This document shows, piece after piece, positions 1,893 through 50,521 of a stretch of 52,615 nt of DNA. The first letter of the stretch is position 1. Every line of letters begins with the position of its first letter. This stretch comes from a virus (Duplodnaviria > Caudoviricetes). Below the pieces are notes generated by a model that was not told the DNA's origin, searched no databases, and was given only the letters and a program-made list of their open reading frames with translations. The position numbers and the translations under genes were made by a program. The stretch is taken from positions 1 through 52,615 of the IMG/VR virus record IMGVR_UViG_3300025115_000016. One strand, given 5' to 3'.

Positions 1893-2591
1893 TTAAGATT
1901 GATAGTTGATGATTGATTGACGTACAAGTCCAAGATCGTTTGGTATCCTGTTTTCCTTGAACATTCCGTACGGTGATTTTGCGGTACATGTGCCGTCCGC
2001 ATTGGTGATGAAGTAGTACTTTGTGGTTCCGTTGACGTTATTTCGTTCTGCTCCTGCAAATAATACGACAGTGAAGAGTCCTTCCATTGTGATGGTATTG
2101 TCCAGCATCTTCCCAAGCGTCTTTATCTTGCGTTCTCCGTTGTCTCCGAGTTCGTCGTGGTAGAGAAAGAAGATGTACAGTTCCCTTTTGAGTTCCCTGG
2201 CTTTGTCGATGGGCTTGAACCCTATCTCTGCAAGTTCGGAAAACTTGTCGTATCCTTTCACCCTGGCTTTGTCCATGTAGGCGAATGCCATGATGTACTG
2301 TGCGTCATCGATGACGATGTTCTCTATTTCCGGTCTTGACTTGTCGATGAATTCAAGCACGTCCACGATGGTCTTCATGTCGTCCGTTTCAATGTAGTTT
2401 CCTCCTTTCGAAATCGGCATAGTGGTATCAAAATGTTTCTTCCATCCCTTTGTCGGCAAGGCTTTGTTTGCGACGTTGATGATCGCCGTCTTCTTTGGAT
2501 CGAGACCGGTGATGTTGAGTTCTGGGAACGGAAGAATTGCGGTGGACTTTCCTTTGCCGGACGGGCCGACGATTGCAATGACTTGACTCAA
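1893..2591 (-). CDS. AAA_24 / Sak4-like ATPase (recombination/annealing)
   Basis: Walker A GPSGKGKS, IVIDDAQY, KTLGKMLD...EGLFTVVL, TAKSPYGMF; typical of this family in Bacteroidota phages. Confidence 0.85.
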   Translation of the reverse strand: MSQVIAIVGPSGKGKSTAILPFPELNITGLDPKKTAIINVANKALPTKGWKKHFDTTMPISKGGNYIETDDMKTIVDVLEFIDKSRPEIENIVIDDAQYIMAFAYMDKARVKGYDKFSELAEIGFKPIDKARELKRELYIFFLYHDELGDNGERKIKTLGKMLDNTITMEGLFTVVLFAGAERNNVNGTTKYYFITNADGTCTAKSPYGMFKENRIPNDLGLVRQSIINYQS

Positions 2592-19833: not shown

Positions 19834-21011
19834 CGAGACTCGGAAGAACAATCGATGAACTCGACGAACTTTCTCTCGGAAGCATCTCCGATGCGTCGCT
19901 GCTTGCCATGCGCGACATGTCCTTGCCGAAGACTCACCCAAACGCCACAAAGTACTTCTCTGTCGCCGCACTCAAGTCCCTGATCGCTGCTATCGGGGAC
20001 TCCGCACTCCGCAAGGGGACGGTCTCGCTGACAGCGAACACTCCGACGTCGGTAGTCTTCTCTCAGCCGTTTACGAATCCATACTTCCTTGCCGTCAAAC
20101 GAGGTGAAGACTCCGCCGGCAGTCAGATAGGATGCGTTGTCAGCGAAGAAGGACAGGGCGGCTTCACGGTCACAGCAATGGAAGACTGCACGTTCTACTA
20201 CCTTGCCGTACAGAACATCGTGGGGATCGATCTTGAAGACATCATCTCTCCGGTTGACATTACCGACGTTCAGGACGACGACATACTTCGATATGATGCA
20301 TCGGAGGGAGTATGGAAGAATGTTCAACTTGAATCCGGCGACGCCAATGATCCTGGCGATATTTTTTTTATCAGAGATGACTTTGCTATTGGCAACGCAA
20401 CTTCCGGCAACGTCGGAGAACTCAGGTGGAGCTGGGCTACATCCATTGGCGGCAATGCGGTGCGACTCATTGATGAGATTGGTGCGATCGGACTATTTCA
20501 ACTGCAAACAGGGGCACAGCTCGCAAGCAATATAAGACTGTACTCTTTAGGCACAGGGCTTACGTTGAAATTTATACCTACTCAGCCGAATCAAACGCTG
20601 AAATGGAGAATTAAACTTGGACAGGCATCGGGAGCTCTGTTCAATGCGTACATCGGACTCGCTCAGGATTACGATACTCCCACGGGTGGAGGCAAAGACT
20701 TTGTTGGATTTCAATACTCTGCAAACAATGCAAATTGGCTATGTGTTTGTACGACGAGTTTCAGCGGTACAGAGCATACCAACAGCGGTGTTCCCGTTTC
20801 TACCGATTGGGTCACACTTGAGATCAGAACGAATTCGGATGCAACAGCGTACCAATTTTATATCAATGGCAATCTCGTTGTTACCCGCACAACCGATCTT
20901 CCATCTGCGACGTCCTGTTCTCCGCTTGTATGGCTTGGGAATACAGAGACAGCCGGAAAGACGCTCACGGTAGATTATTTCTACTATAAAATTACAGGGC
21001 TAACAAGATGA
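19830..21011 (+). CDS. Tail fibre with a C-terminal lectin-like beta-sandwich
   Basis: Fibre motif DITDVQDDDILRYDASEGVWKN; WVTLEI...FYING...LTVDYF. No signal peptide. Confidence 0.7.
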   Translation: MTRLGRTIDELDELSLGSISDASLLAMRDMSLPKTHPNATKYFSVAALKSLIAAIGDSALRKGTVSLTANTPTSVVFSQPFTNPYFLAVKRGEDSAGSQIGCVVSEEGQGGFTVTAMEDCTFYYLAVQNIVGIDLEDIISPVDITDVQDDDILRYDASEGVWKNVQLESGDANDPGDIFFIRDDFAIGNATSGNVGELRWSWATSIGGNAVRLIDEIGAIGLFQLQTGAQLASNIRLYSLGTGLTLKFIPTQPNQTLKWRIKLGQASGALFNAYIGLAQDYDTPTGGGKDFVGFQYSANNANWLCVCTTSFSGTEHTNSGVPVSTDWVTLEIRTNSDATAYQFYINGNLVVTRTTDLPSATSCSPLVWLGNTETAGKTLTVDYFYYKITGLTR

Positions 21012-24000
21012 AAAATAAATTAGCATTGATATTTATACTGCTTTGTTCGATTTCCTATTCGCAGACGACGATCAAGATCAAAGCTCTGTACACCGACACT
21101 CTTCGCTCGAATATGGATACGGTACGCGTACAGTCGTATACGAGGTTCTATCGTCCTGCGTTCTTCGACTCGACGGTCAGGTTTCTTCCTTCGGCTTTAT
21201 TCAGATCTTCTTCCGACACCCTGGCAACGAGAGCATACGCGCGTTCTATTTCCGGTTCCGGCAGTGGGAGCGACGCACTTTTAGACTCGCTCCAAAGGCA
21301 CACAGACACACTGCTTGCTCACAACATCAGGATCAACGCAAAGCAAGATGCAAGCCAGAACCTAACGGACATCTCTTCCGCATCTACCGGGGATGACTTT
21401 CTACTTCAGTATGTTTCCGGAGCGGGAGCATGGGTCGGAAGAACTCCCGCGCAAGTAGCGTCTACAATGGGATTGAACTCTGCTTCGTACGTTGACTCTC
21501 TTCGTCTGATGACGCTCGATAAGACAGAGACCGCAACCGGACTAAAGACATTCGTCGAAGGAATTCTTGTCGGGGTGGCTGCTAACGATCAGGGCTATGT
21601 ATCGTTCTCAAATCCTACGACGACGAACCGTGTGGTACTTCAGTCTGCCACTGCAACAGCAACGAGGACGCAGACTCTTCAGAACAAATCCGGGACAGTG
21701 ATGCTCACCTCAGACACAACGTCTCTTTCCAACAGGATCAACGCTGTTCCCGATTCTTCTTACTACGTCACCAAGGGCACAACACAGGTTCTTACCGCTA
21801 CGAAGTATTTTACAAGGGGCATAAATACTGATACAATACGTTCTACCAACCCATCAGTAGGAATAAAAATGGATGGTTACTTTGATACACAAGATGCACC
21901 TGTAAAATTTGGAAGAACGAGCGTATATGGTGGAAGTATTGAATTGATAAGTGGTAGTCTCACATCCAAATCTTCGGTGATTGATTTTCAGGGCGTTGGA
22001 AATCAAGCACATACATTTCCAGACGCAAGCGGAACGCTGGCGCTTGTTGCCGATTCTGCCATAGTAGCCGCAGGTTACGGTCTTGACCTATCTCAATCGT
22101 TGCACACGTTCACGTTGACCGTTGACACTACGAATGAGATAGCGACGCTGTATGATGTATCGCAGAAACTCAACTCTGCCGACACCACATCATTGTCTAA
22201 TCGCATAAACCTAAAACTCACAGCATCCGATACAGCGTATTTCGTTTCGGTGGCAAAGCAAAATGCAACAACGCGGTTTGACTCTGTTCAGATCGGATTG
22301 GCTACCGCATACGGTGGGGTTATCAGAATGACGGACGGTGCAAGCGGGGTGCTTCGGATTGTTTCACCGCTAATATATTCTGGCGATTACATTGATACCC
22401 TTCCCAATGCAAGCGGAACATTTATGCTTCGGGGTGATACTTTGTCCTTGTCAAACAGGATCAACACGAAACTTAATGCATCCGATACAGCGTATTTCGT
22501 ATCAGTGGCAAAACAAAACGCCTCGACACGGTTTGACTCTGTTAGAGTCGGTAAAGAGCAAGAGGTTGAGGGTTCTATTCTTTTTAGCGACGGCGGTAAC
22601 GATTGGGGTAAATTGTATATTGGGAATTTATCTTCAGATAAAACATGGAGATTGCCCGATTCAACGGGAACGGTTGCGTTACTATCAAATCTACAACCGA
22701 TACCAAATCCCCTGTATCTTGGAAACGGCTCAGAGGCAGGTGAAATTATATTAAATTCTGGAACTGGTGAAGCACCGCAATCTTATACTCGCATAAGTTC
22801 TACACATAATACGGGCGATACAATCTTTATATCGTTCCCAATAGAATCAGGCGATCTGATGTTGCGGAGCGATACAACTTCATTAAATGACAGGATAAAC
22901 TTAAAACTTAACTCTTCTGACACAACTTATTTTGTCTCAAGAGGAAAGCAGAACAACAATACTTCCTTTGACACTGTTCTTGTTGGTATTTCATCTGCAC
23001 AAACAGGCGGTGTGAAATTCTCCGACGGTGCATCTGGCTATGGTATTTTAACAAACAAGAACGGTGCTAACGGGAAGGTGTGGACGTTACCCGACAGCAG
23101 CGGAACTCTTGCACTCAAAGAATATACGCTTAATCCGACACAGGTCGGAACTGCCTCTTACATGGATTCCAACCGTGTAGTAACAAACGATGAACAGAAC
23201 ACAAGAACACGCTTCGACTCGATACAGGTCGGACTTGCAACGGCACATCGTGGCTCTGTTGTGTTTACCGATGGTGCAAGTGGTAGTGGAAGGGTTGTTG
23301 CGCCGCTTATTTGGACTGCCTATCACACACAGACACTTCAAGATAAGTCTGGAAATATAATGCTGACTTCCGATACCGTATCTTTATCAAATCGCATTGA
23401 TACAAAATTTGCGAAATCAGATACGACATATCTTCACGCCTTAAAATTTGCAAACATTACTGATTCATTGTTGGCACATAGAAATTATATGGGGGCAAAC
23501 AGAGACTCGATTAAAAGGCACACGGATAGTTTGCTGTCTCACAACACAAGAATTAACGCAAAACAAAATACGATCCCGAACCTTGCGGATACGTCAAAAT
23601 ATATCGAATATGCCGACACAACGCTGTCGATCGCTATGCAATGGGAACTCAATAGAAAGTTGTGGATTACTGATACAACAGGTAAGTGGGCACCGAAAGG
23701 GATTTATATATTTCCTTCCGATACCGTATCTTTGTCTAATCGCATAAACCTGAAACTTAACGCAAGCGATACAGCGTCTCTTTCCAATAGAATAAATCTG
23801 AAACTTAACGCAAGCGATACAGCGTCTCTTTCCAATAGAATAAATCTGAAACTCAACGCATCTGACACAACTTATTTTGTCTCAAGAGGAAAGCAGAACA
23901 ACAGAACACGCTTCGACTCGATACAGGTCGGACTTGAAACGGCACATCGTGGCTCTGTTGTGTTTACCGACGGTGCAAGTGGTAGTGGAAGAGTTGTTGC

Positions 24001-27000
24001 ACCGATTACTTGGAGTGCCTATCACACACAGACGCTTCAAGATAAGTCTGGAAATATAATGCTGACTTCCGATACCGTATCTTTGTCTAATCGCATAAAT
24101 CTGAAACTCAACGCAAGCGATACAGCGTCTCTTTCCAATAGAATAAATCTGAAACTTAACGCAAGCGATACCAACAGAATTGTAACCATTGACAAAGACC
24201 AATTAAGCATATCTGGCAAAAAGGGATTCTCCGACTCAATTTATGTCGGAACAGAACAGATTAGTGCTGGTGTGGTATATTTCTCTGATGGCGGGCAAAA
24301 TTGGGGTAGGCTGACACCTGGAAATCTAACCGCAGACAGAACGTGGAAACTTCCCAATGGCGATGGAACTCTTGCATTTACCGCCGATACTTCTTTGATG
24401 CTTCAAAACCCGTTGTATCTTGGTAATGGCGGTGAAGCAGGTGAAATTATTTTGAACAGTGGAACAGGAGAACCGCAACAGTCGTGGACAAGAATAACAC
24501 CGACCAATGGTGGTGCAAACGATACCGCATATATTCTTTTGCCGTCAAGCGATGGAACTCTTGCGCTTGTCGCCGACTCTGCCGAAGTAGCGGCAGGTTA
24601 CGGTATCTCTGTAAGCCAATCCAATCATACGGCTACGGTGTCGGCGGATTCATCTGTTCTCGTCACCAAAGGCACGACACAGGTTATTACCGCTCCGAAG
24701 CACTATACTCAACCGCAGTTTATCACAACATCATCAGACTCGGCTTTAATCTTATCGCACACAGGAACTACGTCGGCAGGACCGATAATCCCGCTGAGGA
24801 TTGCGATAGCAGGCTCACAGACGGCTTACCCTGAAATCAAGGCAATCAACTACACGCCTACGGGGAATTGGGGGAATATTGGTAATCACTACGGCATCTA
24901 CTCTGACTTGTCTGGTGTTAGTTACGATGATTTATTGGGTGATGAAGGCGCAATTTACGGTAACTCACCGAGTGGTATCGGTGTTCAAGGCGTTTCAACA
25001 AACAATTACGGTGTTTACGGTTCTTCGGTAGGCAGTATCGGTGTTGCTGGTCTTTCAACAAACAGTTATGGTGTTGTTGGTAACTCAGGAAATAACTACG
25101 ACGGCTACTTTATAGATTCAGTCTACGTCGGAAAGAGAATAACCGTTCCAACTGGTTTTGTGGAAGCGGACTCGTTCAGAAGCAATTATGTAACTCGTCT
25201 GACCTCCGGCTCTTGGCACGCTGGACTCGGTGCATCGTCTTTAGGAAACATATCTACTGGTTCAATTACCGGAACGGGTGCAACGGCTGGCGAAGTATTG
25301 TATGAATTTAATAACTCACAGGCAAGGGCGGCAAACAATCGCTCGGCTATTGCATTAAGGTTATCGAACAATTCAAATTCTCGTTTTAGGATTCGGCACG
25401 TTCAGGCATCTGCGACAGACGACGATTCTTACCTTGATTTTCAACAGCCGAACGGTTCAACGATTGCCGTTTTGACAAGGGCGGGGGTATTTACACTCGG
25501 CTCTGTTTCGGGGACTGGCTCAACGGCGTTCAATGCAGGTGCTATCTCTGGCACTACGGGGACGTTTAGTCAGACAAGCGATGGTTTAGAAATAACCCCA
25601 CTAACATTACAAAATAATGCTAATTCCTATGCAACGGCAAGCAGGATAATCATAGCATCTACGAATAACATTGGTGCAAATCAAAATGGGCGGATTGACC
25701 TATTATCGTTTCGCCATACTTCGGGTGCGATGAGTCTTAACTTTTTGTTATCGCCAGGTTCTTCTGTTGCCCCAACATCAAGACTATACATTGACAGTCT
25801 TGGAAATGTGGGAATTGGAACGACAACGCCAAATTCAAAATTACAGGTCAACGGCACACTCTCCGCCACTACGGGGACGTTTACAGGAAATATGCTGTTT
25901 AACAAATCGTCTGGCGATTTAACAACAACGCTTCGAGTGCCAAACCTAACAGATGATAATTACATTGTATTTCAAAAGGCGGGATTATCAAAGTGGGCAT
26001 TGTGGCATCGTGCAAATCAGTTTAGAATTTGGAACTACTCAACAGGAACTACGGCATTAGCAATAGATTCAACTGATAACAGTGTAACGCTGACAGGCGG
26101 ACTCTCCGCCACTACGGGGACGTTCAGCGGTGCTGTATCTATTACTCCATCACCAACAACAAATCCGCACCTAATTGTTCGCTCAAATGTAACTGGTTCG
26201 GGGGCAAACATACAATTAAACAACGCCGAAAACGGGAAATACTATGAGTTTCGTGTTGGCGGTTCATTATCTTCTCTGGGTAATGGGATCTTGGGCGTCA
26301 CAACGCTTGGTGCTGCTGCAACCGTTGTAAAGTGGGACACGTTGGGCAATCAAACTTTAACAGGCGGACTCTCTGGCACTACGGGGACGTTTAGTTCTAC
26401 TGTCCGTGTATCAACCGATGGACAGGGATTTTTGGCATCCGCGTCGTTGACCTCTATGCCCTCTGGAATCAGCAACATTTTCAACAACTTTAACAATAAT
26501 AAGGGGCTGGTGTTACGCAGAACTGGTGCTGGAACGGGTGACTTTATTGATATGCAGAATAGTTCGTCTCTTACCGTTGCTTCTATAAATTCAAGTGGTG
26601 ATTATACGGGCGGTTCTGGTTCGTTCACTACGGGGACGTTCAGCGGTAAAACTCAATCTGGCGGTCTTACTTCCGTCGGTGCTTTCGGTATGGCGAACAT
26701 CGTTGACACAGTTACCTACGCAGGCGTTAACAGCAGTATAGCCGCTAAAAATCTCACATCAACCGCTGGTATGTATCGGCTGACCTACACAATGGCGACA
26801 ACTACGGCGGGGACGGGTGGGACGGTTACGGTTACTCTATCGCACAACAACGGAGCGGCGCAAACATTAACATCGGTTATACAACTTAATTCAACGTCGG
26901 CTGCGTCTGGCGGCGTATCATCGGGACAGTTTGTTTATTACGTCGCAAGCGGGACTCCGACAATATCTACAACTGTCGCGGGTGCATCCGGTTCACCCGT

Positions 27001-27037
27001 TTATCGTCTGGACGCAATATCGGAGAGAATAAAATGA
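21008..27037 (+). CDS. Giant modular fibre/adhesin-like protein with a signal peptide (2009 aa)
   Basis: MKNKLALIFILLCSISYS|Q; DTxSLSNRINLKLNAS repeats; GVxGxS repeats; GNVGIGTTTPNSKLQVNG; TTGTF-delimited modules. Confidence 0.85.
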   Translation: MKNKLALIFILLCSISYSQTTIKIKALYTDTLRSNMDTVRVQSYTRFYRPAFFDSTVRFLPSALFRSSSDTLATRAYARSISGSGSGSDALLDSLQRHTDTLLAHNIRINAKQDASQNLTDISSASTGDDFLLQYVSGAGAWVGRTPAQVASTMGLNSASYVDSLRLMTLDKTETATGLKTFVEGILVGVAANDQGYVSFSNPTTTNRVVLQSATATATRTQTLQNKSGTVMLTSDTTSLSNRINAVPDSSYYVTKGTTQVLTATKYFTRGINTDTIRSTNPSVGIKMDGYFDTQDAPVKFGRTSVYGGSIELISGSLTSKSSVIDFQGVGNQAHTFPDASGTLALVADSAIVAAGYGLDLSQSLHTFTLTVDTTNEIATLYDVSQKLNSADTTSLSNRINLKLTASDTAYFVSVAKQNATTRFDSVQIGLATAYGGVIRMTDGASGVLRIVSPLIYSGDYIDTLPNASGTFMLRGDTLSLSNRINTKLNASDTAYFVSVAKQNASTRFDSVRVGKEQEVEGSILFSDGGNDWGKLYIGNLSSDKTWRLPDSTGTVALLSNLQPIPNPLYLGNGSEAGEIILNSGTGEAPQSYTRISSTHNTGDTIFISFPIESGDLMLRSDTTSLNDRINLKLNSSDTTYFVSRGKQNNNTSFDTVLVGISSAQTGGVKFSDGASGYGILTNKNGANGKVWTLPDSSGTLALKEYTLNPTQVGTASYMDSNRVVTNDEQNTRTRFDSIQVGLATAHRGSVVFTDGASGSGRVVAPLIWTAYHTQTLQDKSGNIMLTSDTVSLSNRIDTKFAKSDTTYLHALKFANITDSLLAHRNYMGANRDSIKRHTDSLLSHNTRINAKQNTIPNLADTSKYIEYADTTLSIAMQWELNRKLWITDTTGKWAPKGIYIFPSDTVSLSNRINLKLNASDTASLSNRINLKLNASDTASLSNRINLKLNASDTTYFVSRGKQNNRTRFDSIQVGLETAHRGSVVFTDGASGSGRVVAPITWSAYHTQTLQDKSGNIMLTSDTVSLSNRINLKLNASDTASLSNRINLKLNASDTNRIVTIDKDQLSISGKKGFSDSIYVGTEQISAGVVYFSDGGQNWGRLTPGNLTADRTWKLPNGDGTLAFTADTSLMLQNPLYLGNGGEAGEIILNSGTGEPQQSWTRITPTNGGANDTAYILLPSSDGTLALVADSAEVAAGYGISVSQSNHTATVSADSSVLVTKGTTQVITAPKHYTQPQFITTSSDSALILSHTGTTSAGPIIPLRIAIAGSQTAYPEIKAINYTPTGNWGNIGNHYGIYSDLSGVSYDDLLGDEGAIYGNSPSGIGVQGVSTNNYGVYGSSVGSIGVAGLSTNSYGVVGNSGNNYDGYFIDSVYVGKRITVPTGFVEADSFRSNYVTRLTSGSWHAGLGASSLGNISTGSITGTGATAGEVLYEFNNSQARAANNRSAIALRLSNNSNSRFRIRHVQASATDDDSYLDFQQPNGSTIAVLTRAGVFTLGSVSGTGSTAFNAGAISGTTGTFSQTSDGLEITPLTLQNNANSYATASRIIIASTNNIGANQNGRIDLLSFRHTSGAMSLNFLLSPGSSVAPTSRLYIDSLGNVGIGTTTPNSKLQVNGTLSATTGTFTGNMLFNKSSGDLTTTLRVPNLTDDNYIVFQKAGLSKWALWHRANQFRIWNYSTGTTALAIDSTDNSVTLTGGLSATTGTFSGAVSITPSPTTNPHLIVRSNVTGSGANIQLNNAENGKYYEFRVGGSLSSLGNGILGVTTLGAAATVVKWDTLGNQTLTGGLSGTTGTFSSTVRVSTDGQGFLASASLTSMPSGISNIFNNFNNNKGLVLRRTGAGTGDFIDMQNSSSLTVASINSSGDYTGGSGSFTTGTFSGKTQSGGLTSVGAFGMANIVDTVTYAGVNSSIAAKNLTSTAGMYRLTYTMATTTAGTGGTVTVTLSHNNGAAQTLTSVIQLNSTSAASGGVSSGQFVYYVASGTPTISTTVAGASGSPVYRLDAISERIK
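23204..24166 (+). repeat. Internal duplications in the fibre gene
   Basis: About 180 bp near-identical at 23204-23384 and 23903-24083; 48-bp tandem units at 23720-23863 (x3) and 24071-24166 (x2). Confidence 0.9.
25552..26640 (+). repeat. Five identical 15-bp repeats CACTACGGGGACGTT separating unique modules
   Basis: Copies at 25552, 25867, 26110, 26377 and 26626. Confidence 0.9.
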
Positions 27038-28056
27038 AAAACATAATTTTACTTTTACTATTTGTTACTGTCGCATATTCTCAGCCATTCTCCCCACGTT
27101 TGAAAGGTTCAAACGGCATTGACTATAAACTCGTCAATCAGACAGCCGTAGGCGACAGTATCATGATAACAGCCGCAGATACCAACAGAATTGTAATGGT
27201 TGATAAAGATCAATACATCGGGGGATTCAAGACATTCTACGATTCCATTGAAGTGGGTGAGCCGCTTAATGTTGTTGGTGTTGTCCGTTTTTCTGACGGT
27301 GATCAGGGAACGGGAAGACTTCTTGGTGCATTGGGTGGAAGCTATAATTGGCGACTTCCCGTCGGTGATGGCACGCTTGCGAGAACATCTGATATTCCAG
27401 TGGTTATTACAGACACCAATCGAATTGTTGATACAGATCAAGCACAGACTATAACTGGTGCAAAGACGTTTAACGCTCGTCCATATCTTTTTGACGGCCT
27501 GAAATTCTACGGCGACTTGAATGACGGTTCATTGGTTTCTCCATCGCTAACCGATATTAGAACTTGGACGCTTCCCAACACAACGGGAACTATTGCTTTG
27601 ACGGACGGAAATCAGAACTTCAACGATGTTGCAAATATCACGGCAGACTCAATAAAAGTATCTGGCGGTATAAACGCAGATAAAATGTCCGACTTTGACT
27701 CCATTCAGGTTGGAATAGCGACGGCGGAGGTTGGTGTTATTCGTCTGTCTGACGGTGCGAGTGGTTATGCAAGAATTTACAATAGTGCAAACTCGGCACA
27801 TATATCCCTTCCATCCGAGAGCGGTGAAATGCTTGTTTCTTCAAGGTCTGGCATAGCAACCGTTGGTGGTGGTGATAGTGTTCAGGTTTCATACACGGGG
27901 TTCACCACTGATGGTATAGTTATGTTGACATACGAGGGTGGTAATATTGCATATACAAAGATTCCCGTCGTTGGATATAAAAGGACTGATGGATTCACAA
28001 TTTACGCAGACGCTTCTTTCAATGTTGCTTGGTTCGTGGTAAAAAAGGGGGATTAA
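27034..28056 (+). CDS. Second signal-peptide-bearing fibre-like protein
   Basis: MKNIILLLLFVTVAYS|Q; shares DTNRIV, FDSIQVG and SDGASG modules with the 2009-aa protein. Confidence 0.8.
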   Translation: MKNIILLLLFVTVAYSQPFSPRLKGSNGIDYKLVNQTAVGDSIMITAADTNRIVMVDKDQYIGGFKTFYDSIEVGEPLNVVGVVRFSDGDQGTGRLLGALGGSYNWRLPVGDGTLARTSDIPVVITDTNRIVDTDQAQTITGAKTFNARPYLFDGLKFYGDLNDGSLVSPSLTDIRTWTLPNTTGTIALTDGNQNFNDVANITADSIKVSGGINADKMSDFDSIQVGIATAEVGVIRLSDGASGYARIYNSANSAHISLPSESGEMLVSSRSGIATVGGGDSVQVSYTGFTTDGIVMLTYEGGNIAYTKIPVVGYKRTDGFTIYADASFNVAWFVVKKGD

Positions 28057-28297
28057 GTGAGTGAGAAGGAGAATTGATTGATATATGGTTTGAGATTGAA
28101 ATATATGTTTGGGATAGTGGATAAAATAATTGGTATTGAGAAAGATATGATGTATTGGAAATGATTTATGTATGGAAAATATTTTGAGTAGATAATGAGT
28201 TGATTTGAGTATATTTGTGGGAGTATTTATATGTGATTGTTCGTTGGAAAATATGTGTGGAAATATGTGAGGATAGAATGAATTGAAAAGAAATATA
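28036..28297 (+). other. C-depleted non-coding tract
   Basis: No C in 28036-28241 and one C (28242) in 262 nt. Confidence 0.9.
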
Positions 28298-30140: not shown

Positions 30141-30632
30141 ATGCAGCGTACAACCATAGTCCTCATAATCCTGTGCATAGTATTGGCGCTGTGCACGGGA
30201 TACCTATATCGCAACCAGGGACGCCAAAGTACATCTGTCGTAGGACATGTCATCGAGATACCGGTCGATCTTCCTCCGGTGTACATACAGGGCCCTGCTG
30301 TCCCTTATCCGGTCAAAGACACAACTGATTTTCAAAAGTACTTGGATAGCCTGCTTCGTCAGACTGAGGATCAGAAGGACTCTGCGATCACGAGTTTGTC
30401 TCAGCCATTCAACATCAACGGCGAACAGGGAATCATCAAATACGACATCACTGCGTTTCCTCAACTCAACATGAGAACGATCGAAGCAATCTTCGACGTC
30501 AATCCGTTTAAGGTCGATACGACGTTAATGGACACAACGCTGATCGTAAAGAACAACAGCGATTGGTACGTCTTCACCCTGATCGGTTCGGTAGTGACAT
30601 TCATACTATTGGCAATTACCGGAGGCCTCTAA
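30141..30632 (+). CDS. Spanin-like membrane protein
   Basis: N- and C-terminal TM segments; follows the endolysin. Confidence 0.5.
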   Translation: MQRTTIVLIILCIVLALCTGYLYRNQGRQSTSVVGHVIEIPVDLPPVYIQGPAVPYPVKDTTDFQKYLDSLLRQTEDQKDSAITSLSQPFNINGEQGIIKYDITAFPQLNMRTIEAIFDVNPFKVDTTLMDTTLIVKNNSDWYVFTLIGSVVTFILLAITGGL

Positions 30633-33600
30633 TGCCGAGAGAAGCATATACCATAGGTAGATTTGACAGAGGCATCATCTCTGCGGTCGAAGGAGCAGAC
30701 CTTCCGAAGGAGTCTTCTCCGTGGAGCATCGATCAGGACTGCGAAGGCCCGCTTGGAGTCCTTCGCGGAAGGAACAACGACGAAGCGTTCGTCTCCCATG
30801 CCTCAAGGGGAAACAACGCTCAGGCATACGGATGGATCGTAAGGGAAGACGGAAAGCGCGACCTGATATACTACGACGCTGCAAACGGAGACGTAAAGTA
30901 CATCACCGACTTCCACGGCACAAAAGGATATGGCACCTCATTCAGTCCGGGAACAGGCAAGACAGTCTCGATTGAATCTGTCAACAGAGGCGTGCGCGTG
31001 GCCGTAGGAGACGCAGACGTAAAGTTTATCGGCTACATCGACCACGAGCAGTTCGGCGGGAGCGTTCCGAGCGGACTTCAATGCGTCGATGCAAAACTGT
31101 CCAACCAAACCTCTTTTCCCTACGTTCACAAGATGGTCGGACAAGACAGTCTATATGGATATGCGATTGAATGGCAGGGAAAGAAAGTCTTCAAAGTTAC
31201 TCTCTCAAGCGGAGCGTTCGTTCTCTCTGAACGATCCTTTGGCTCTCTCCAGGGGATTTGCGAAGACGGCACGTATATCTACGTCTACGATGCATCGATA
31301 GGAACATATGGCACTCTCTACAAACTGAATCAGTCTCTTGAGGTGGAAACAAGCTATCCTCTTTCCGGCTTTGGAAGCGTAGGAAATGAATTCGGCGGCA
31401 CTCAGGCTGGAATTGTCACCGACATCGAACTAAGCGCCGACAACTCCACTGTATGGTTTACGGGAGTGCCGAGCATCCCTATCACCGCGGCATCTTCGTG
31501 GAACGAGGCTGGTTCAAAATTCATCTTCTCTCAAGACATATCGTCTCTCAACGACGGTCAGTCAATAGTTCCCGTCGATAGAACGCCGTCGATGGCGCTG
31601 GATGTTTCAGAGGGAAGATTCAAGTCAACCGGAATAGTTCGTCCCGCAATGCGCGGCTTTGTCAAACTTACCACCGGAACCGAGATCGGAATATTCTGCT
31701 CCATCGAACAGAACGTGTACTACGACGGAACGGCTTCGGATGGAAAGCCGTATCTTGGCATATTGATTCTCAACACATCGTTTGTGGTTTCTTCCGGTTT
31801 CAACTCTGCGAATTCAAGGTTCATTGCCGTCGATGCTACAAACATGGTTCCGTCTCCCAGCGCTCCCGACAGTTGGTCTCCGATCAACGCCATCTACTGT
31901 CCGAATGGATCGGGGGAAGACGTTCTTGTCATCGCGGACAACGCAAACCTCTTGACTGAAGAGTGCGCTCTTGCAGACAATAAAAATCTTACGATTGGCG
32001 CAGCCGGCTCGGCGTTCGCCTGGGATGCGTCGGGATGGAAAACAATCTCGGTTGATGACGACAGCGAGGCTATTGACGACGAGCTCACAAATGCATCGAT
32101 CATGTTCAACAAGTACGACGGAGTCTCGGAGCTGAACGAATGCTACGTCTTTCCAGCCTATCAGTACCATGATGATCCCCTTACTGTCAACGTCGATCAG
32201 TCTCCGAGAATGTACAAACTATTCATCGGCGACGACGCATCTTTCTCGGCGGAACCTCATGTATATGTCAAGAGAAGCGATGCATGGATAACAGCGGAGA
32301 TCAACAACAATGAACCGGGAAGTCTTGGCGGGAAAGTTTACTTCTACAAATATGCGTTCATCTACGATGGATACCAATATTCTCCGCTTGAGAATTTCAA
32401 CGAACCGTTTAGGATCATCATTGGCAGCGGAAGTTACTCAACAAGGGTAACGGTTACGCTTAGAGACAATGTATTGAATGCGAGAATTACCGATGTTGCA
32501 ATATTCAGGGCCGAGGCGGCATCAAGCACATCTCTTCGTCCGACGACATCCTATCGTCTCATCAACACGATCAGTCTCAGGCAGAAGTGGGCGTTGAACA
32601 GCAGCGGCAAGTTCTCCGACTTCTATCAGGAGAGCGTCTACGATACGGGAAACTTCGGCGGTGCGTATGAAACAGAGTCCGGCATCGATGCGTCCAATCC
32701 GAACAACTTCATGCGCTATTCAATATCCGCTCAGGGGAACGGATACTTTTTTGTCGGTCAGTGTTTCAACGAAGAGTTCGACGACAACTCTCTTGCAAAC
32801 TTCCTGTTCCGTTCAAAGCAGAACGCTCCCGATACGTACGACTGGTCAACAGACTTCCTCGTGCTTCCGACCAAGCCCGTCGCACTTCACTTCTTCAGAG
32901 GGCTTCTGTACGCCTTTGACGTAGCCAGAATGTACGTGATCGATCCGAACAACTTCCAGATCATCCAGGTAGTCGAAGGGATGGGCGTTGAGGACCAGCG
33001 ATGCGTCGTGTCAAATGAAACGGCGATGTTCTTCGGAAACAGGAACAATGCGTACATGCACGACGGAAAGACTCCGACGATCATCTCCACGCCGGTGAAT
33101 GTCTCTTCCGATTCGACCATAGGTGGAACGGCAATCATTTCGTATAGGGCTACATTTGTAAATTCATACGAAATGTCCATTGCTATTCACTCAAAGAGAA
33201 ACCTTGTCTTGTTCTGTTTTTCGAAGACGGGAGCATCAACGTATATCCTTGGATTTCACTATCCGACCGGCTCATGGTACTTCTGGCAATTTGCCTCAAG
33301 TATCGATGGAACGATCCTGCCAAACGGTACCGGTAAAAAGATGGTTCTTGTCGATGGATATGGACAGGCATATCTTTCGACCGCCGGTGGCCTTCTCAGC
33401 ATCAACTCTGCTGCTACCTATAAAGCATGTACATGGTACAGCCACATCATCGACGGCGGGACTGTCAACGCCATCAAGAAGTTCTACATGATCATCCTGG
33501 ACGGTACGGCAGGAACGACCAAGCAGGTGGCATACAACGGAAGCACGACGTTCTCCACAGACTTCACTTCCGGAACATATCTTGATACGACGACCAAGAG

Positions 33601-33694
33601 GTCTTCGATGTGGATAAAACTTGTCCTTACCACGACGGATACTATTCGCGGGCTTACCGTACTATACAGAAAGATGATTGGAGAGCGGGCATGA
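30632..33694 (+). CDS. Tail nozzle / stabilisation (muzzle) protein
   Basis: About 1020 aa, beta-propeller-like; start MPREAYTIGRFDRGI; precedes the ejection proteins. Confidence 0.7.
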   Translation: MPREAYTIGRFDRGIISAVEGADLPKESSPWSIDQDCEGPLGVLRGRNNDEAFVSHASRGNNAQAYGWIVREDGKRDLIYYDAANGDVKYITDFHGTKGYGTSFSPGTGKTVSIESVNRGVRVAVGDADVKFIGYIDHEQFGGSVPSGLQCVDAKLSNQTSFPYVHKMVGQDSLYGYAIEWQGKKVFKVTLSSGAFVLSERSFGSLQGICEDGTYIYVYDASIGTYGTLYKLNQSLEVETSYPLSGFGSVGNEFGGTQAGIVTDIELSADNSTVWFTGVPSIPITAASSWNEAGSKFIFSQDISSLNDGQSIVPVDRTPSMALDVSEGRFKSTGIVRPAMRGFVKLTTGTEIGIFCSIEQNVYYDGTASDGKPYLGILILNTSFVVSSGFNSANSRFIAVDATNMVPSPSAPDSWSPINAIYCPNGSGEDVLVIADNANLLTEECALADNKNLTIGAAGSAFAWDASGWKTISVDDDSEAIDDELTNASIMFNKYDGVSELNECYVFPAYQYHDDPLTVNVDQSPRMYKLFIGDDASFSAEPHVYVKRSDAWITAEINNNEPGSLGGKVYFYKYAFIYDGYQYSPLENFNEPFRIIIGSGSYSTRVTVTLRDNVLNARITDVAIFRAEAASSTSLRPTTSYRLINTISLRQKWALNSSGKFSDFYQESVYDTGNFGGAYETESGIDASNPNNFMRYSISAQGNGYFFVGQCFNEEFDDNSLANFLFRSKQNAPDTYDWSTDFLVLPTKPVALHFFRGLLYAFDVARMYVIDPNNFQIIQVVEGMGVEDQRCVVSNETAMFFGNRNNAYMHDGKTPTIISTPVNVSSDSTIGGTAIISYRATFVNSYEMSIAIHSKRNLVLFCFSKTGASTYILGFHYPTGSWYFWQFASSIDGTILPNGTGKKMVLVDGYGQAYLSTAGGLLSINSAATYKACTWYSHIIDGGTVNAIKKFYMIILDGTAGTTKQVAYNGSTTFSTDFTSGTYLDTTTKRSSMWIKLVLTTTDTIRGLTVLYRKMIGERA

Positions 33695-34782: not shown

Positions 34783-35810
34783 CTAATATGGGAGCACTTT
34801 CAGAGAACTTCGCACGAGCATTCTCTCAGTCCTTTGCACAACGTAAGGAAGACGAGAAGCTCGAAGAGTCTGTTCGTATGCAGGAGATCAGAGAGAAGAA
34901 CGAACAGGACTATCGCAACGAGCAGATCAATCTATCCCTGCAACAGCTTCGAATGACCGAACAGAACAACATCCAGAACAACAACCGGATGATGCTCTCT
35001 GAGGCCAATCGTCAGTTTGTTACAACCGGGGAGAATGATCCCATTCTAAGATTTGGAGGACTCAAACCTCAAAACTCCGAGTATCTAAATGCTGCCGGAC
35101 CGCTGGCAAAACTGGATACAGGAAATGTCGCTGTCGATAGATCGGTATATGAGAAAATGGCTTTTGCGTATATCGAACAAATGAGGCAGGATTCCCGTGG
35201 AAGCGAAGTCTCAAAGATGCAGGAAAATCTCATGTCTCTTGAGAATGCGGCCAACAGCATGTCTCCGACATTCACATCGAAGGGTTCTCTTCCGACAATA
35301 GCGCTTCGCAAGTCGGTTACGAATCAGCAAAGACTTGTTATGGGCGATGCCGGCAGATGGGCTGCCAACTACGGCATTGCTGTCTATGACGATCCGAACC
35401 GTCCTATGACAATCGAGGGTACGAAGCAGGTGTCTCAAGAGGTTCTCGATCCTAACTATCTTGAGAATGTTGCAAAAATAATCGAGCGTATGCGTGGAGA
35501 GGGACTTCGCGCCAACAACCGTCAGCTTGGAATAAATGTGGACGAATACATCAGACCTGTCGAACGCTCATGGTTTGACAACGTGATGAAACACTACAAC
35601 ACGATCGATGCGGAAAAAGTCAGCCCTGCCGTTCGCGCGTTATTCAATCGTCTCCAAAGAACAAACATGATGGAGGCAAACGCACAGCAGATGCAGAGGA
35701 TGAAAGAAGTCTCGAGTATCCTATCAATGATGAAGGCTGCCGGAGATGTATCCAGCGAGTACAAAGAACCGGCTAAATCAATGGTCTCACCATATATCGG
35801 CGGACAATAA
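34779..35810 (+). CDS. Ejection protein 2
   Basis: Helical and Gln/Asn/Met-rich; lies between the pilot and the giant protein. Confidence 0.65.
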   Translation: MTNMGALSENFARAFSQSFAQRKEDEKLEESVRMQEIREKNEQDYRNEQINLSLQQLRMTEQNNIQNNNRMMLSEANRQFVTTGENDPILRFGGLKPQNSEYLNAAGPLAKLDTGNVAVDRSVYEKMAFAYIEQMRQDSRGSEVSKMQENLMSLENAANSMSPTFTSKGSLPTIALRKSVTNQQRLVMGDAGRWAANYGIAVYDDPNRPMTIEGTKQVSQEVLDPNYLENVAKIIERMRGEGLRANNRQLGINVDEYIRPVERSWFDNVMKHYNTIDAEKVSPAVRALFNRLQRTNMMEANAQQMQRMKEVSSILSMMKAAGDVSSEYKEPAKSMVSPYIGGQ

Positions 35811-35814
35811 TCTT

Positions 35815-38800
35815 ATGGCAAAACTTCAACTGCTATACGGGACGCAGGCCCCGCAAGAAACCTCAACGGAGCGTCCTTCATGGGACGCTTCGTCGTTTAT
35901 CGGACAGTTCATGGCCGGATACGTGGAAGGACTCACGACATTCGACGTATTGGACAACTACGACATCGTAAAGAACAACGCCGACACCGAGGCAGAATAC
36001 ATCGCCAGAAGTCTCGGAAGCGTTCTTGGGTTCATCGGATTCCTGCCGTTTCCCGGAACAGGCACGTTCACACGACTCGGCTTTTCCACTGCCGCCAAGG
36101 CAATGAAGCTCGTCGGACAGGCAGACAAAGCAAAGAGCCTTGCCGCAGAAGCCAGGGCTGTCAAGATGACCATGACCTCTATCCCGATGATTACCGGAAG
36201 AGTGATGAGCGGAGGAGTAATGAGGATGCTTGAGTCCGGAGCCGCCAAGTCTGCGCTTCAGTTCGGAGAGCAGGCGATAGGAAGAAGTCTTTCTGCCGGA
36301 GCGAAAGCAAGAATATCCTCTTATACCGAAACGGGTTTGTTTATGGGTTTTGCCTCAGCCGCAGCTGCTCGCCCAATGAATCCTATGGACATCTTCAGCG
36401 AAGGATGGGACGAGCGATGGGAAGCAGCGAAGTACGGCATGGCATACGGCGTAGGACAGCAGGCGATCGCATCGTTCTTCTCTCCGAAACTCATGGAGAA
36501 ACTTGGAGCGAAGAACTTCAAGGAGCTCATGCAGAAGGAGCCGGACAAAGCCGAATTCATGCTCAAGTCTCTTCGCGGAGTTTCTACCGGCCTTGTGATG
36601 GGCGGATATGCGGCAGCCGAAGGGTTCCCAAACGAACTTGTGCTGTACGAAACTCTTGTCAACGGTGTCTTCGGATACAGAGAGCTTCCCTGGTACAACA
36701 AGCAGGCGATGAAACTGATGAACAAGCACCTTCGTGAAGAGAAGGTTGCGGACTATCTGCTCATGCAGAAGACTCCCGAGAAGTACCTTGAGTCTGTCGG
36801 AGAGACCGATCTTCCGCCCGAGGTCATCAACTCGTTCTCAATAGCCGCCACCGCTCACTTTGGGAACACCGTCAAAACCGCATCTGCCTACATCGAAGCG
36901 ATGAAAAAGACCGAAGCCGCACGCAGAGGCGTGGACGTGGAATCTCTCGGAGACGAATTCATATCTGAAATGATACAGTCCGGAGACATCACCAAGGCGA
37001 AGGCATGGCAATCCCTTCTTGAGTACGATCAGATCATGAAGATGGAGACCGACAAGGCGGTCAACACATTCGAAGAGGTTCACAAGAGAAAGCCCAGCGA
37101 AGAGGAGATGCACGACATCTCGGATGCTGCCAAAGACAATGCGGACGCCATCAGCGTCGATCTCTGGTACAACAACGACGACGCGATCAGGATCATCAAG
37201 GACGTCGCCAAGAGGGTGCACTACGAACAGGAGATGACTCAGCAGACTCCCGATCAGCTTCTCAAGGTGGCTTCCTCGATGAGAGAGGCGGGCATCTCGA
37301 TGCAGGCGGCCGAATTCGTCACGACGCTCAGCGACGTCCTCGGCAAGGAACATCGCGGCTTTGAGACCTTGCGCACGATCAACGAGATCATTCGTACCAA
37401 CAAGCGCGACGGACAAAAGAACTACATTCCCGTCAGGGATCAACTTACCGGAAAGTTCGGCATCACGTTGACCAAAGAGCAGGACAATGCGTTCAGGCAT
37501 CTGTGGGCCATGTACTCCAACAGCAAGACCAGAAAGATGCTCAAGGTCAACCTGTCCGACTACGACGTCTTCAGGCCGACAGAGCACCTTGCAGACGGCA
37601 CGTTCAAGGCGGAGATCGACAACGTGACTCCGATCGAAAAGATGACCGGTCTCGAAGCAATGTATCTGAAGACAGCGGTGGATAAAAAGACGGACGTTCC
37701 GATCCACTCTTCGAAGGTCAACGCTTCCCGGCTGATGGTGGAGTCCTTCAAGAAGAACTGGTGGTATTTCTCCGGCAAGAAGGACAATCACCACATGGTC
37801 TTCTTCGACATGACAGAGGCCAAATTTGAGCCAGGAGACTTCAATTTAGCCAAGGAGGCCTTAGCCATAGATGCGGTCTTAAAACCGCTCCAAGACCCCT
37901 CTAAAGGCGATTATGTGCCATTTTTAGAGCAGTATGCGAAGGACAAAGCCCTTTTTGTGGCTGAAGCCCTGAGAGACGTCCCTGAAGGCAAGGCAATAGG
38001 CGAAAAGATAGCCGCAGAGAAGGCATACGACGCCCTGTACAGCTTCAACGCTGTCCAGTGGAAGAAGTTCAACCATGCGGAGACCCTTGCTGAACTGTTT
38101 GCAGACAGGGATGCGTTCTCGATTACCGATGTGACGAAGTTCAACAAGCGTACTCAGTTGATGTTCGACGTCGGCATTCCGATGGATCCGAGCGTCGTCG
38201 GAAGGGAGAAGCTCAGCGCCAGGGTGGCAGAGTGGACCCCGGAGTCTCTCGGTCTGTTCAAGACTGAGTTCGGTCGAATGTTCGGAGGAAAGAACCCCTT
38301 GCAGTACGACGGCGTTGCGTGGGTGCGAAGAGAGGCCGCCAAGGCATTCGGCTCGTACTCCGGAAACGAAGAGGGGGGATTTCACAAGATCGCTGCCGTT
38401 CACTCCGACGACCTTGGAGGACTCTTAGGCAAGCAAGGCTTCCACGTAATGACTGCGAAGGAAGAGTCGATGCTCGATAAGTCCGGCATCAGCGACGACA
38501 TCGTGTTCTTTGAGAGCGCCACAAAACTCAAAGGGAAGCGTCCTGTAACCAAACTGACCTTATCCAAAGAAGGCATCACTCACGACGCTACTGAAGTGAT
38601 CAACCCGGAAGACCCGCTCGGCAAGAGGACAGGCGGCTCGTTCGAGATTCCCGTAGAGTCGATACGTCTGAACCTGTCGGCAGCGGAAGATCCGACGATC
38701 AAGCCTGCTCACATCGCCAAACCGCTCTTGAACCACTTTGAAGAGTCTCCCGAACTCTCAAGGCTCATCATGGAGAAGTACGTGCTTCCGGGATTTGAAG

Positions 38801-47224: not shown

Positions 47225-47282
47225 GATGAGTGCTCCTTTTAGATGAATAAAAACACCCGCCCTTTCGAGCGGGTATATGTGA

Positions 47283-47498
47283 TTACCTTCTTCGTGAACA
47301 GTAGGTACTGTAGAATTTCTCTCCAAGTTCTCTTGCCTGCTTTATGTTTCGTGCGTAGATGGTTTTGACGAGTATCATTGTGGCGTGGTATCGTTCCTCT
47401 TTGTACCCTGTGTACATCGTGCAGTTGTGTATTCTCCACTGTCGCGCGGTGTTCGGATACGGAGGAAAGTAGATTTCGAGTGTATATTCCTTTTTCAT
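47283..47498 (-). CDS. Hypothetical protein
   Basis: ATGA-coupled ORF. Confidence 0.55.
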   Translation of the reverse strand: MKKEYTLEIYFPPYPNTARQWRIHNCTMYTGYKEERYHATMILVKTIYARNIKQARELGEKFYSTYCSRRR

Positions 47499-49527: not shown

Positions 49528-50046
49528 TTATAGATTGCTTCGTCTTGCCCACTCAGCGATGAGTATTCCGTCCATGTCCGCGTGCCTTCCGATTGCCTGC
49601 GGAAACAGACGGCTTCCTACTTCCCTGGAAGCAAGTTTCAGTTGATCTGCTCCTTTGAGTCCTTTGGGAAGAAGCAACTTCTGCCAGGACTTCGAGTCGC
49701 AGTATTCGTACGCATATCCAAGATCTTCAATCGCAATGAGTGTTGCTTCCAACGCGGCAGACGCCGAGATCGACGCCTGAAAGCGGAACGAGTTGATCAT
49801 CGGTCGTTCGAGCAGCACCTTGACCTCAAGTTGCTGGAAGTCCGGAACGTCAAAGTTGATCGCCTTGCCGAGGACAGCAACAAGTTTCGGAAAGTCAACC
49901 CTCGTTCTATAACGAACGAGAGTCTTCGTATAAGACAGTTTACTGACCGTGGGCATGCTTGCGAAGTGAATGAGAGTTCCCTTGTCGGTAAGCATCCCTA
50001 TTGAGCCGGTAACACCATTGTCAATTCCGATATAGACTTTATTCAT
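49528..50046 (-). CDS. RuvC-like Holliday junction resolvase
   Basis: YIGIDNG.TG, LLERP, KSWQK, DGILIA. Start MNKVY. Confidence 0.85.
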   Translation of the reverse strand: MNKVYIGIDNGVTGSIGMLTDKGTLIHFASMPTVSKLSYTKTLVRYRTRVDFPKLVAVLGKAINFDVPDFQQLEVKVLLERPMINSFRFQASISASAALEATLIAIEDLGYAYEYCDSKSWQKLLLPKGLKGADQLKLASREVGSRLFPQAIGRHADMDGILIAEWARRSNL

Positions 50047-50521
50047 ATGTTTCTTTTGCTTCAATTGCTTTGTATTTTGTATTCCAGCATTCATTACAAT
50101 AAACGCCCGCAAAATATCGCTGAGTGTTTATCAAACGATACTCTTGTTGTTTTCCGCATCCGGAACAATTGATGAATCCTCGGGTAAAGTCTTCCGTCGT
50201 CTTTGCCAAGAGATGATAATTTTCATCTGTCAATCTTTCGTCTCTGATGTCTTGCGAAAGAGATACAATAGCCGTATTACCGGCTGCATTCCACAACGTG
50301 ATCAACCACTCGGTTGAAGAACAATAATTTACACTGAAGCAAAATATATCTCCAAAGAGATTAGACCACTTCAGTATTGAATTATCCCAAGTATATCCTG
50401 TTGCCTTCTTGAGTTTCTTTCTGATTTCATTGTAAGAATCTTCTTCGGGGCTGCCGTCAATAAACCATTTCAATGGTCTAAGCATAACTTCTTGCTGTTC
50501 GATAATTAGTGCTGGTTTCAT
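50039..50521 (-). CDS. Hypothetical protein with C-terminal Zn finger
   Basis: CSGC...CNEC. Confidence 0.65.
   Translation of the reverse strand: MKPALIIEQQEVMLRPLKWFIDGSPEEDSYNEIRKKLKKATGYTWDNSILKWSNLFGDIFCFSVNYCSSTEWLITLWNAAGNTAIVSLSQDIRDERLTDENYHLLAKTTEDFTRGFINCSGCGKQQEYRLINTQRYFAGVYCNECWNTKYKAIEAKETYE

Follow-up and report, generated by a model that had tools for sequence, protein, structure and literature searches.

Five identical 15-nucleotide linkers between the modules of a phage fibre tip: possible joints for recombination

The stretch of DNA analysed here (the window: IMG/VR record IMGVR_UViG_3300025115_000016, 52,615 bp) is a complete virus record, with a completeness of 100% as estimated by CheckV. 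Its tail-fibre-like gene, P0001, ends in an array of six modules (M0 to M5) separated by five exact, in-frame copies of a single 15-mer, CACTACGGGGACGTT. The codon identity of these linkers is beyond chance and beyond what the protein needs, and we propose, at about even chances, that they are recombination or conversion joints between fibre modules. The 15-nt words encode the TTGTF core of single 11-residue fibre-shaft units, standing between six beta-rich globular modules at the distal fibre end, and the modules are old, distant paralogues that occur in different combinations among related phages. The linkers would have been made and kept identical through recombination among themselves, whether by short-patch conversion, template switching or unequal crossover. 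The agent would be general homologous recombination, for example through the phage’s Sak4-like annealase, and the identical linkers would act as in-frame joints at which modules are lost, duplicated or exchanged.

All five copies lie on the + strand and none on the - strand. They are spaced 315, 243, 267 and 249 nt apart (Table 1), and every one is read in the same frame, as xxC ACT ACG GGG ACG TTy (Thr-Thr-Gly-Thr-Phe). The array was first described by a model that saw the letters alone (the sequence-only reading), whose account of five exact in-frame copies with identical synonymous codons is confirmed in its positions, spacings and reading frame. With up to three mismatches allowed, the 15-mer has seven matches, against a mean of 1.07 in shuffled sequences, and none of 100 shuffles reaches seven. 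Under the fibre gene’s own codon usage, the analytical probability that five copies agree at all four codons is 6e-9, and the observed identity of same-residue codon pairs within the linkers (40/40) was reached in none of 200,000 peptide-preserving simulations. GGG, which all five copies use, is chosen for Gly less often than any other codon here (14% of Gly codons in the fibre gene, 11% in other genes). These figures, together with the within-gene control described below, bear out the earlier claim that protein-level selection alone would not fix the wobble positions.

The identical block has sharp edges. The base immediately 5’ of the core never departs from C, even though it occupies the wobble position of a Gly, Ala, Ala, Gly and Phe codon in copies 1 to 5, and the codons on either side vary: the adjoining Ser before the block is TCT, TCC or TCG, and after it Phe is TTT or TTC and Ser AGT or AGC. 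Codons in the flanks are shared in 15 of 36 pairs, a level matched by 32,544 of 200,000 simulations (p=0.16). The sequence-only reading had regarded the flanks as combinatorially shared; exact runs of 26 nt (copies 1 and 4), 24 nt (copies 2 and 3) and 22 nt (copies 3 and 5) do exist around the linkers, but this sharing does not exceed chance and deserves little weight. Elsewhere in the same gene, the peptide LSNR occurs in nine copies with a wobble identity of 0.38, which is ordinary divergence, and full codon identity of other repeated peptides is confined to recent long DNA repeats. The sequence at the array also appears sound. An independent k=31 assembly of the sequencing run has 0 differences from the window over 24142-28100, and false joins at the linkers are impossible because the repeats are at most 26 nt long, below k=31. 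The run’s contigs show no alternative joints, variants or loose ends at the array, although contigs cannot reveal rare variants.

The linker peptide is itself common in phage fibres. A degenerate scan of IMG/VR for TTGTFSG-coding DNA found at least 120 loci; among the matches listed, 111 long open reading frames (ORFs) contain TTGTF and 22 contain it at least twice. In the IMG/VR fibre ORFs listed, TTGTF very often serves as the core of a tandemly repeated 11-residue unit, approximately SGAVSGTTGTF, and on sequence grounds each of the window’s linkers ([GA][LI]S[AG]TTGTF[ST]G) represents one unit of this shaft repeat. The likeness to a repeat-spacer array that the sequence-only reading had drawn is therefore only a picture, as the linkers are isolated units of a common structural repeat within coding sequence. 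We know of no name for the repeat, whose literature we did not search. It is not the Pfam family PF03406 (Phage_fiber_2): the tip matches 0 families at E<=10, and the PF03406 match in the distant homologue P0008 (residues 891-925) involves a different peptide.

Other phages encode this peptide freely. Across those loci, 67 different 12-mers are used for the four core codons over 143 TTGTFSG sites, and the window’s codon set is found in none of the matches listed; there is therefore no general nucleotide-level constraint on the peptide. The exact 15-mer occurs at 23 IMG/VR loci, four of which place it in an [AG]TTGTFSG context (L016, L026, L019 and L023, with L016 and L026 the same there). Because these four have nothing else in common with P0001, they are chance codon coincidences in a common motif.

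As a within-gene control, we compared TTGTF copies at least 50 aa apart in other ORFs, dropping redundant loci (L061 and L108, equivalent to L045, and L131, equivalent to L039) and omitting pairs more than 22 aa apart inside the L045 tandem array, which leaves 11 pairs. The 12-nt core is identical in one of these 11 pairs as against ten of the ten window pairs, whose flank identity is 0.15-0.40, and the sole identical control pair sits in a long DNA repeat (a 71-nt exact run with flanks 85-87% identical). In L034, L069 and L113, adjacent units 10-22 aa apart have the same core codons with differing flanks. On this comparison, local homogenisation of the core is not peculiar to the window; what appears unusual is its reach across whole modules. 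Several viral fibre ORFs also contain tandem 11-residue arrays with identical DNA (the L045 family, with nine units, L033, L069 and L039). The L045 array belongs to a 1712-aa fibre-like IMG/VR ORF (L045 5816-6132, also L061 and L108), in which nine tandem SGAVSGTTGTF units have identical core codons. A further ORF of at least 1736 aa (L092 3394-4424) has four IA[IV][WY]P[IV]TTGTFS sites, 155-236 aa apart and inside long DNA repeats, and represents a different, duplication-based arrangement of the peptide.

Turning to the modules, the longest exact DNA matches between them are 14-21 nt, all at the linker and with no similarity beyond it, and their proteins are 24-31% identical to one another over most of their length. 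Our comparisons indicate that the modules are old, weakly related paralogues, neither recent duplicates nor unrelated. The sequence-only reading had described them as unrelated at the DNA level, which is correct outside the linkers, but the proteins are related. Recent tandem duplication of the modules, which the same reading had named as the contrary case, is ruled out by the absence of shared DNA outside the linker and by the low protein identity. An AlphaFold2 (AF2) model of M5, computed on the M5 alignment, has a predicted local distance difference test score (pLDDT) of 79 and places a sandwich at residues 20-136, with the linker part (residues 1-19) below 50 when modelled as a monomer. 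Its weak fold matches include phage tail-needle knobs, carbohydrate-binding modules and the lambda J tip, and its best viral fold match, to uncharacterised Caudovirales proteins, has a template modelling (TM) score of 0.73. AF2 applied to the whole 599-aa tip without an alignment was uninformative (pLDDT 39).

The distribution of these modules among related fibres is mosaic. An exhaustive phmmer search of the 599-aa tip against 1.84 billion representative proteins gave 8216 matches at E<=0.001, most of which cover only query residues ~160-230, the GNVGIGT motif at the end of M1. We examined 13 relatives, namely those of the best 150 of the 8216 whose best stretch lay outside this motif, after stripping linker residues. 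They are shorter fibres of 186-842 aa with a shared signal-peptide-like N-terminus, and because several sit on contigs of 43-51 kb they appear to belong to the same phage group; nine of the ten relatives looked up derive from Logan or ENA assemblies. M5 is present in 11 of the 13, at their C-termini and with 47-67% identity, M4 in one (P0009, 64%) and M2 in two (P0035 and P0048, 63-66%), both of which are without M5 and have different neighbouring sequence. M0 has a weak match to P0041 (38% identity over 89 aa), and no module-specific relative of M1 or M3 was found among the 13. A separate observation concerns the motif VTKGTTQV[LI]TA[TP]K: it occurs once, near the N-terminus, in the relatives and twice in P0001 (at about residues 255 and 1225, approx. 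21755-21800 and 24665-24710), so that P0001 looks like at least two fibre bodies fused in tandem.

Several homology borders in these relatives lie close to a linker. Homology to M2 starts at the left linker in both P0035 and P0048; on the right side it runs a few residues past the linker in P0035 and stops just short of it in P0048. In P0009, homology to M4 starts directly after a degenerate linker. The relatives’ own linker peptides include TTATF, TSATF, STGTF, VTGTF, GTGSF, GAGTF and DVGTF, and P0021 has two adjacent 11-residue units. At the junction before M5, the four relatives with a motif there have GTGSF, GAGTF or DVGTF, where the window has TTGTF. Because the relatives’ linkers differ even in amino acids, the window’s linkers would have been homogenised within this genome or its close lineage, and the 15-mer would not be a family-wide crossover word.

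Two of the relatives are recombinants. In P0023, upstream residues 479-518 are identical to P0016 at 35 of 40 positions and to P0022 at 11 of 40. The relationship is reversed in the linker-like motif and neck (residues 519-545: 8/27 to P0016, 26/27 to P0022) and in M5 (residues 546-654: 59/109 to P0016, 103/109 to P0022), which identifies P0023 as a recombinant and puts its breakpoint, at the protein level, immediately 5’ of the linker motif. The second recombinant, P0055, resembles P0013 as far as an IVDT motif (24/27) and P0026 in the M5 core that follows (98/109). Given P0023 and P0055, tip exchange within the group is real and takes place at conserved motifs, of which the linker is one.

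Further searches, for DNA of relatives, returned nothing to add to these comparisons. Two 15-mers 228-258 nt apart had 0 matches in viral, metagenome and genome contig collections, and the tip protein and the portal protein, each used as a single query, had 0 matches in the viral contig collection. An M5 alignment scan gave 0 confirmed loci in viral, metagenome and genome contigs (31, 83 and 17 unconfirmed pattern matches, respectively), and an M2 alignment scan of viral contigs gave 0 confirmed loci and 301 unconfirmed pattern matches. A tblastn search with the tip found no match in 50,697 phage records.

The fibre gene bears other marks of recombination. GC content at third codon positions (GC3) is 0.42 in the fibre gene and 0.375 in the next ORF (27034-28056), compared with 0.69-0.71 in the terminase, portal, capsid and 3113-aa genes, and Phe is encoded by TTT in 66% of cases in the fibre gene versus 24% elsewhere. 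On this composition, the fibre locus (21008-28056) looks imported from a lower-GC lineage and prone to recombination. The gene also contains internal duplications of 203 nt (94% identity, 23195-23397 / 23894-24096) and 106 nt (98% identity, 23715-23820 / 24066-24171), and its middle (23195-24171) holds 48-nt tandem units encoding SDTASLSNRINLKLNA. The run’s independent contigs break at these repeats, where depth rises from about 40 to 73-90. Because of the 94-98% identical internal repeats and the deviating GC3, we regard the fibre gene as recombinationally active.

Genes for general recombination are encoded elsewhere in the window. The Sak4-like ATPase named by the sequence-only reading is indeed present (Table 1) and is a candidate for the general recombination function, and a Holliday-junction resolvase-like protein is encoded near the other end. 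That reading had seen no dedicated site-specific recombinase, and our scan, which covered 36 larger ORFs but not all of the small ones, likewise detected no family of integrases, invertases or reverse transcriptases. A diversity-generating retroelement was rejected, with no reverse-transcriptase family detected among the ORFs scanned and no second DNA copy of any module in the fibre gene.

Table 1. Positions of the tip modules, the linker copies, the fibre gene and the recombination genes in the window
Feature	Coordinates	Strand	Remarks
Module M0	25238..25552	+	105 aa, 5’ of first linker; 30% identical to M1 over 76 aa
Linker copy 1	25552..25566	+	CACTACGGGGACGTT; ...AISG-TTGTF-SQ
Module M1	25553..25867	+	105 aa; ends in widespread GNVGIGTTTP..KLQVNG motif
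Linker copy 2	25867..25881	+	...TLSA-TTGTF-TG
Module M2	25868..26110	+	81 aa; 63-66% identical to stretches of P0035 and P0048
Linker copy 3	26110..26124	+	...GLSA-TTGTF-SG
Module M3	26111..26377	+	89 aa; weakly similar to M1 and M4
Linker copy 4	26377..26391	+	...GLSG-TTGTF-SS
Module M4	26378..26626	+	83 aa; 64% identical over 58 aa to P0009 only
Linker copy 5	26626..26640	+	...GSF-TTGTF-SGK
Module M5	26627..27034	+	136 aa; C-terminal predicted beta-sandwich tip domain
Tail-fibre-like gene P0001	21008..27037	+	ORF, 2009 aa; signal-peptide-like N-terminus, many internal repeats
Sak4-like single-strand annealing protein	1893..2591	-	PF13479 E=2e-7; phrog_2872 E=6.5e-53
Holliday-junction resolvase-like protein	49528..50112	-	phrog_1770 E=8e-9

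We favour the linkers as joints for three sets of reasons. Firstly, neither chance nor the protein explains their codon identity, the same peptide is freely encoded elsewhere, and the control pairs share the core so much more rarely than the window pairs. Secondly, the linker peptides are homogenised here, the modules have a mosaic distribution in related fibres, the homology borders of M2 and M4 abut the linker, and so does the P0023 breakpoint. Thirdly, the fibre gene is recombinationally active in a genome that encodes both an annealase and a resolvase. Recombination at the 15-mer itself, the enzyme that would be responsible and an effect on host binding are our inference.

A number of observations weigh against this interpretation. 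The recombinant breakpoints are placed at the protein level, with no crossover mapped to the inside of the 15-mer, and in P0055 the breakpoint lies at the IVDTVTY motif rather than at a linker. Exchange with the relatives could not have used 15 identical bases, since their linkers differ in amino acids. Stretches of 15 to 26 nt are short for efficient homologous recombination. Finally, the sharp edges of the block and the non-significant flank sharing are no harder to reconcile with selection on a fixed word than with conversion tracts of variable length. The earlier proposal that the linkers are crossover points for modules therefore holds only in part: the independent distributions of the modules, the M2 and M4 boundaries and P0023 agree with it, but the differing linkers of the relatives and the P0055 breakpoint do not. 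A stronger version, in which the 15-mer is a dedicated and active in-frame joint, possibly with a factor that recognises the word, and continually gives rise to subpopulations differing in the number or order of tip modules, strikes us as decidedly improbable. If true, a single phage lineage would be diversifying its host recognition by means of a direct-repeat ‘domain cassette array’.

Among the alternatives to recombination joints, the one that survives best, unlikely as we consider it, is that the identity is a scar of assembly: the array would have been built recently, its source being either a tandem array of 33-nt shaft repeats with uniform DNA or several donors that had such an array in common. 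The linkers would then be identical by descent, with too little time so far for divergence, and would have no continuing role. The identical-DNA tandem arrays of the L045 family, L033, L069 and L039 speak for this scenario, as do the two adjacent units of P0021, and the compositionally foreign fibre locus (GC3 0.42 versus about 0.70) suggests a fairly recent acquisition. The closest relatives of the modules in a set of 1.84 billion representative proteins nonetheless reach no more than 47-67% identity, the modules are far less alike among themselves, and the wobble sites adjoining the block already vary, so that recency would have to cover the 15 nt only.

It is also conceivable, though improbable, that selection acts on the nucleic acid and keeps the words for a role unrelated to recombination, such as a translational pause at domain boundaries that assists co-translational trimer folding, or a binding site for protein or RNA. 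The sharp block edges, the preceding wobble C that is kept across three amino acids and the use of the rare GGG codon would all fit such selection. The 67 codon sets used for TTGTF in other phages, with the window’s own set in none of the matches listed, argue against it, as does the behaviour of the linkers themselves. Their pairing probability (0.52-0.77) resembles the background (0.53 +/- 0.15) and their predicted folds differ, which rules out a common RNA structure, and a genome-wide Chi-like word is likewise ruled out, as no linker sub-word is enriched elsewhere in the genome. Frameshifting at the linker was also rejected, on inspection of the sequence: a slippery heptamer is lacking, and the shifted frame TAC GGG GAC GTT TAG meets a stop in no copies other than 1 and 4.

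A programmed cassette system, in which the 15-nt word is the target of a dedicated site-specific factor that deletes, duplicates or exchanges modules at high frequency, as shufflons and invertase switches do, seems highly improbable. An exact, sharply bounded word in five in-frame copies does resemble a recognition site, and many of the phage’s ORFs are without a family assignment. However, all copies are direct repeats and none is inverted, and the scan of the larger ORFs described above detected no candidate recombinase. Chance, codon bias, protein constraint alone or an assembly artefact are practically excluded: TTGTF is a conserved structural motif, and the exact 15-mer does recur in the same peptide context at 4 of 23 otherwise unrelated IMG/VR loci, but the codon statistics (p about 6e-9, 0/200,000 simulations), the control pairs (1/11) and the agreement of the k=31 assembly, with repeats too short to cause false joins, leave these explanations next to no room.

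The genomic setting is that of a podovirus-like phage, to judge by its gene content: a large terminase, a P22-like portal, SU10-type major capsid and adaptor proteins, a primase-like protein, the Sak4-like annealase, the Holliday-junction resolvase-like protein and a ParB-domain protein. The window sequence is carried by a single sequencing run, which is labelled as a freshwater metagenome and probably represents the source sample. P0001 comes after the adaptor gene and a 393-aa ORF in the virion module, and the array occupies the last quarter of its ORF. P0001 has no Pfam family at E<=0.01, and its distant homologues are giant fibre-like proteins with GNVGIGT..P..KL.V.G repeats, some of them with Peptidase_S74 or Phage_fiber_2 domains. 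P0001 is taken to be a tail fibre on the strength of its gene position, its architecture and these homologues.

A few further features of the window may be recorded. P0001 (21008-21070) and the next ORF (27034-27090) both begin with hydrophobic, signal-peptide-like stretches ending in SQ (MKNKLALIFILLCSISYSQ and MKNIILLLLFVTVAYSQ); such a start is also present in most of the related fibres and is odd for virion proteins of a tailed phage. Two giant ORFs, at 35746-45087 (3113 aa) and 30563-33694 (1043 aa), have no Pfam or PHROG family match and may encode internal virion or ejection proteins, or a polymerase-like giant protein. At 45719-47326 lies the gene for a 535-aa protein with ParB N-terminal and ParB helix-turn-helix-like domains, next to that of a 456-aa protein of phrog_8203, a family of unknown function.

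Phage host range is largely set by fibre tips, and the way in which tips are rebuilt matters for phage engineering. The present locus offers a very clean natural example, combining an exact 15-nt word in five in-frame copies, old modules with separate histories, and a control in which other phages do not freeze these codons. If the joints are used as we propose, they would provide ready-made in-frame splice points for fibre engineering at the level of domains, in a little-known group of freshwater podoviruses.

The array may be compared with several known systems. With the 11-residue shaft repeat of IMG/VR fibres it shares both core and flanks ([GA][LIV]S[GA]TTGTF[ST]G). There, units stand in tandem or a few residues apart, whereas in the window they are 81-105 aa apart, across globular modules, with their DNA still identical. 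Shufflons and fibre switches of the Gin/Cin type use inverted repeats and an adjacent dedicated recombinase. As in those systems, short repeated DNA words in the 3’ part of an adhesin or fibre gene here delimit alternative C-terminal segments; unlike them, the window’s repeats are all direct, with no reverse-complement copy, and no recombinase family was found in the 36 larger ORFs scanned. In the receptor-binding proteins of Streptococcus thermophilus phages, collagen-like repeats flank a variable region that determines host range and have been proposed as a site of recombination. A structural repeat borders a variable region in both cases, although the type of repeat and the phage group differ.

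The closest parallel is found in the T-even phages, where glycine-rich motifs (GRMs) separate the hypervariable segments of gp38, His boxes occur in gp37, and recombination takes place at such motifs (Trojet et al. 2011, PMC3157838, which cites Tetart et al. 1996 and 1998). P0001 resembles gp37 and gp38 in that variable segments take turns with short conserved motifs inside a gene for receptor binding or a fibre, and chimeras are found among the relatives of P0001 too. The motif is also conserved in DNA beyond the needs of the protein, within this one genome. P0001 nevertheless has no sequence relationship to gp37 or gp38 (no Pfam match at E<=0.01, and none for the tip at E<=10). Its linkers separate whole domains of 81-136 aa rather than the loops of a single domain, and, unlike in the T-even phages, the identity lies within one gene and is exact at wobble sites. 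In gp38, the deletion of single segments is reported not to be tolerated (Trojet et al. 2011, PMC3157838), whereas fibres related to P0001 naturally carry fewer modules. The principle is thus already known from T-even phages, and the value of the P0001 array is that of a clean and well-controlled instance of it rather than a new mechanism.

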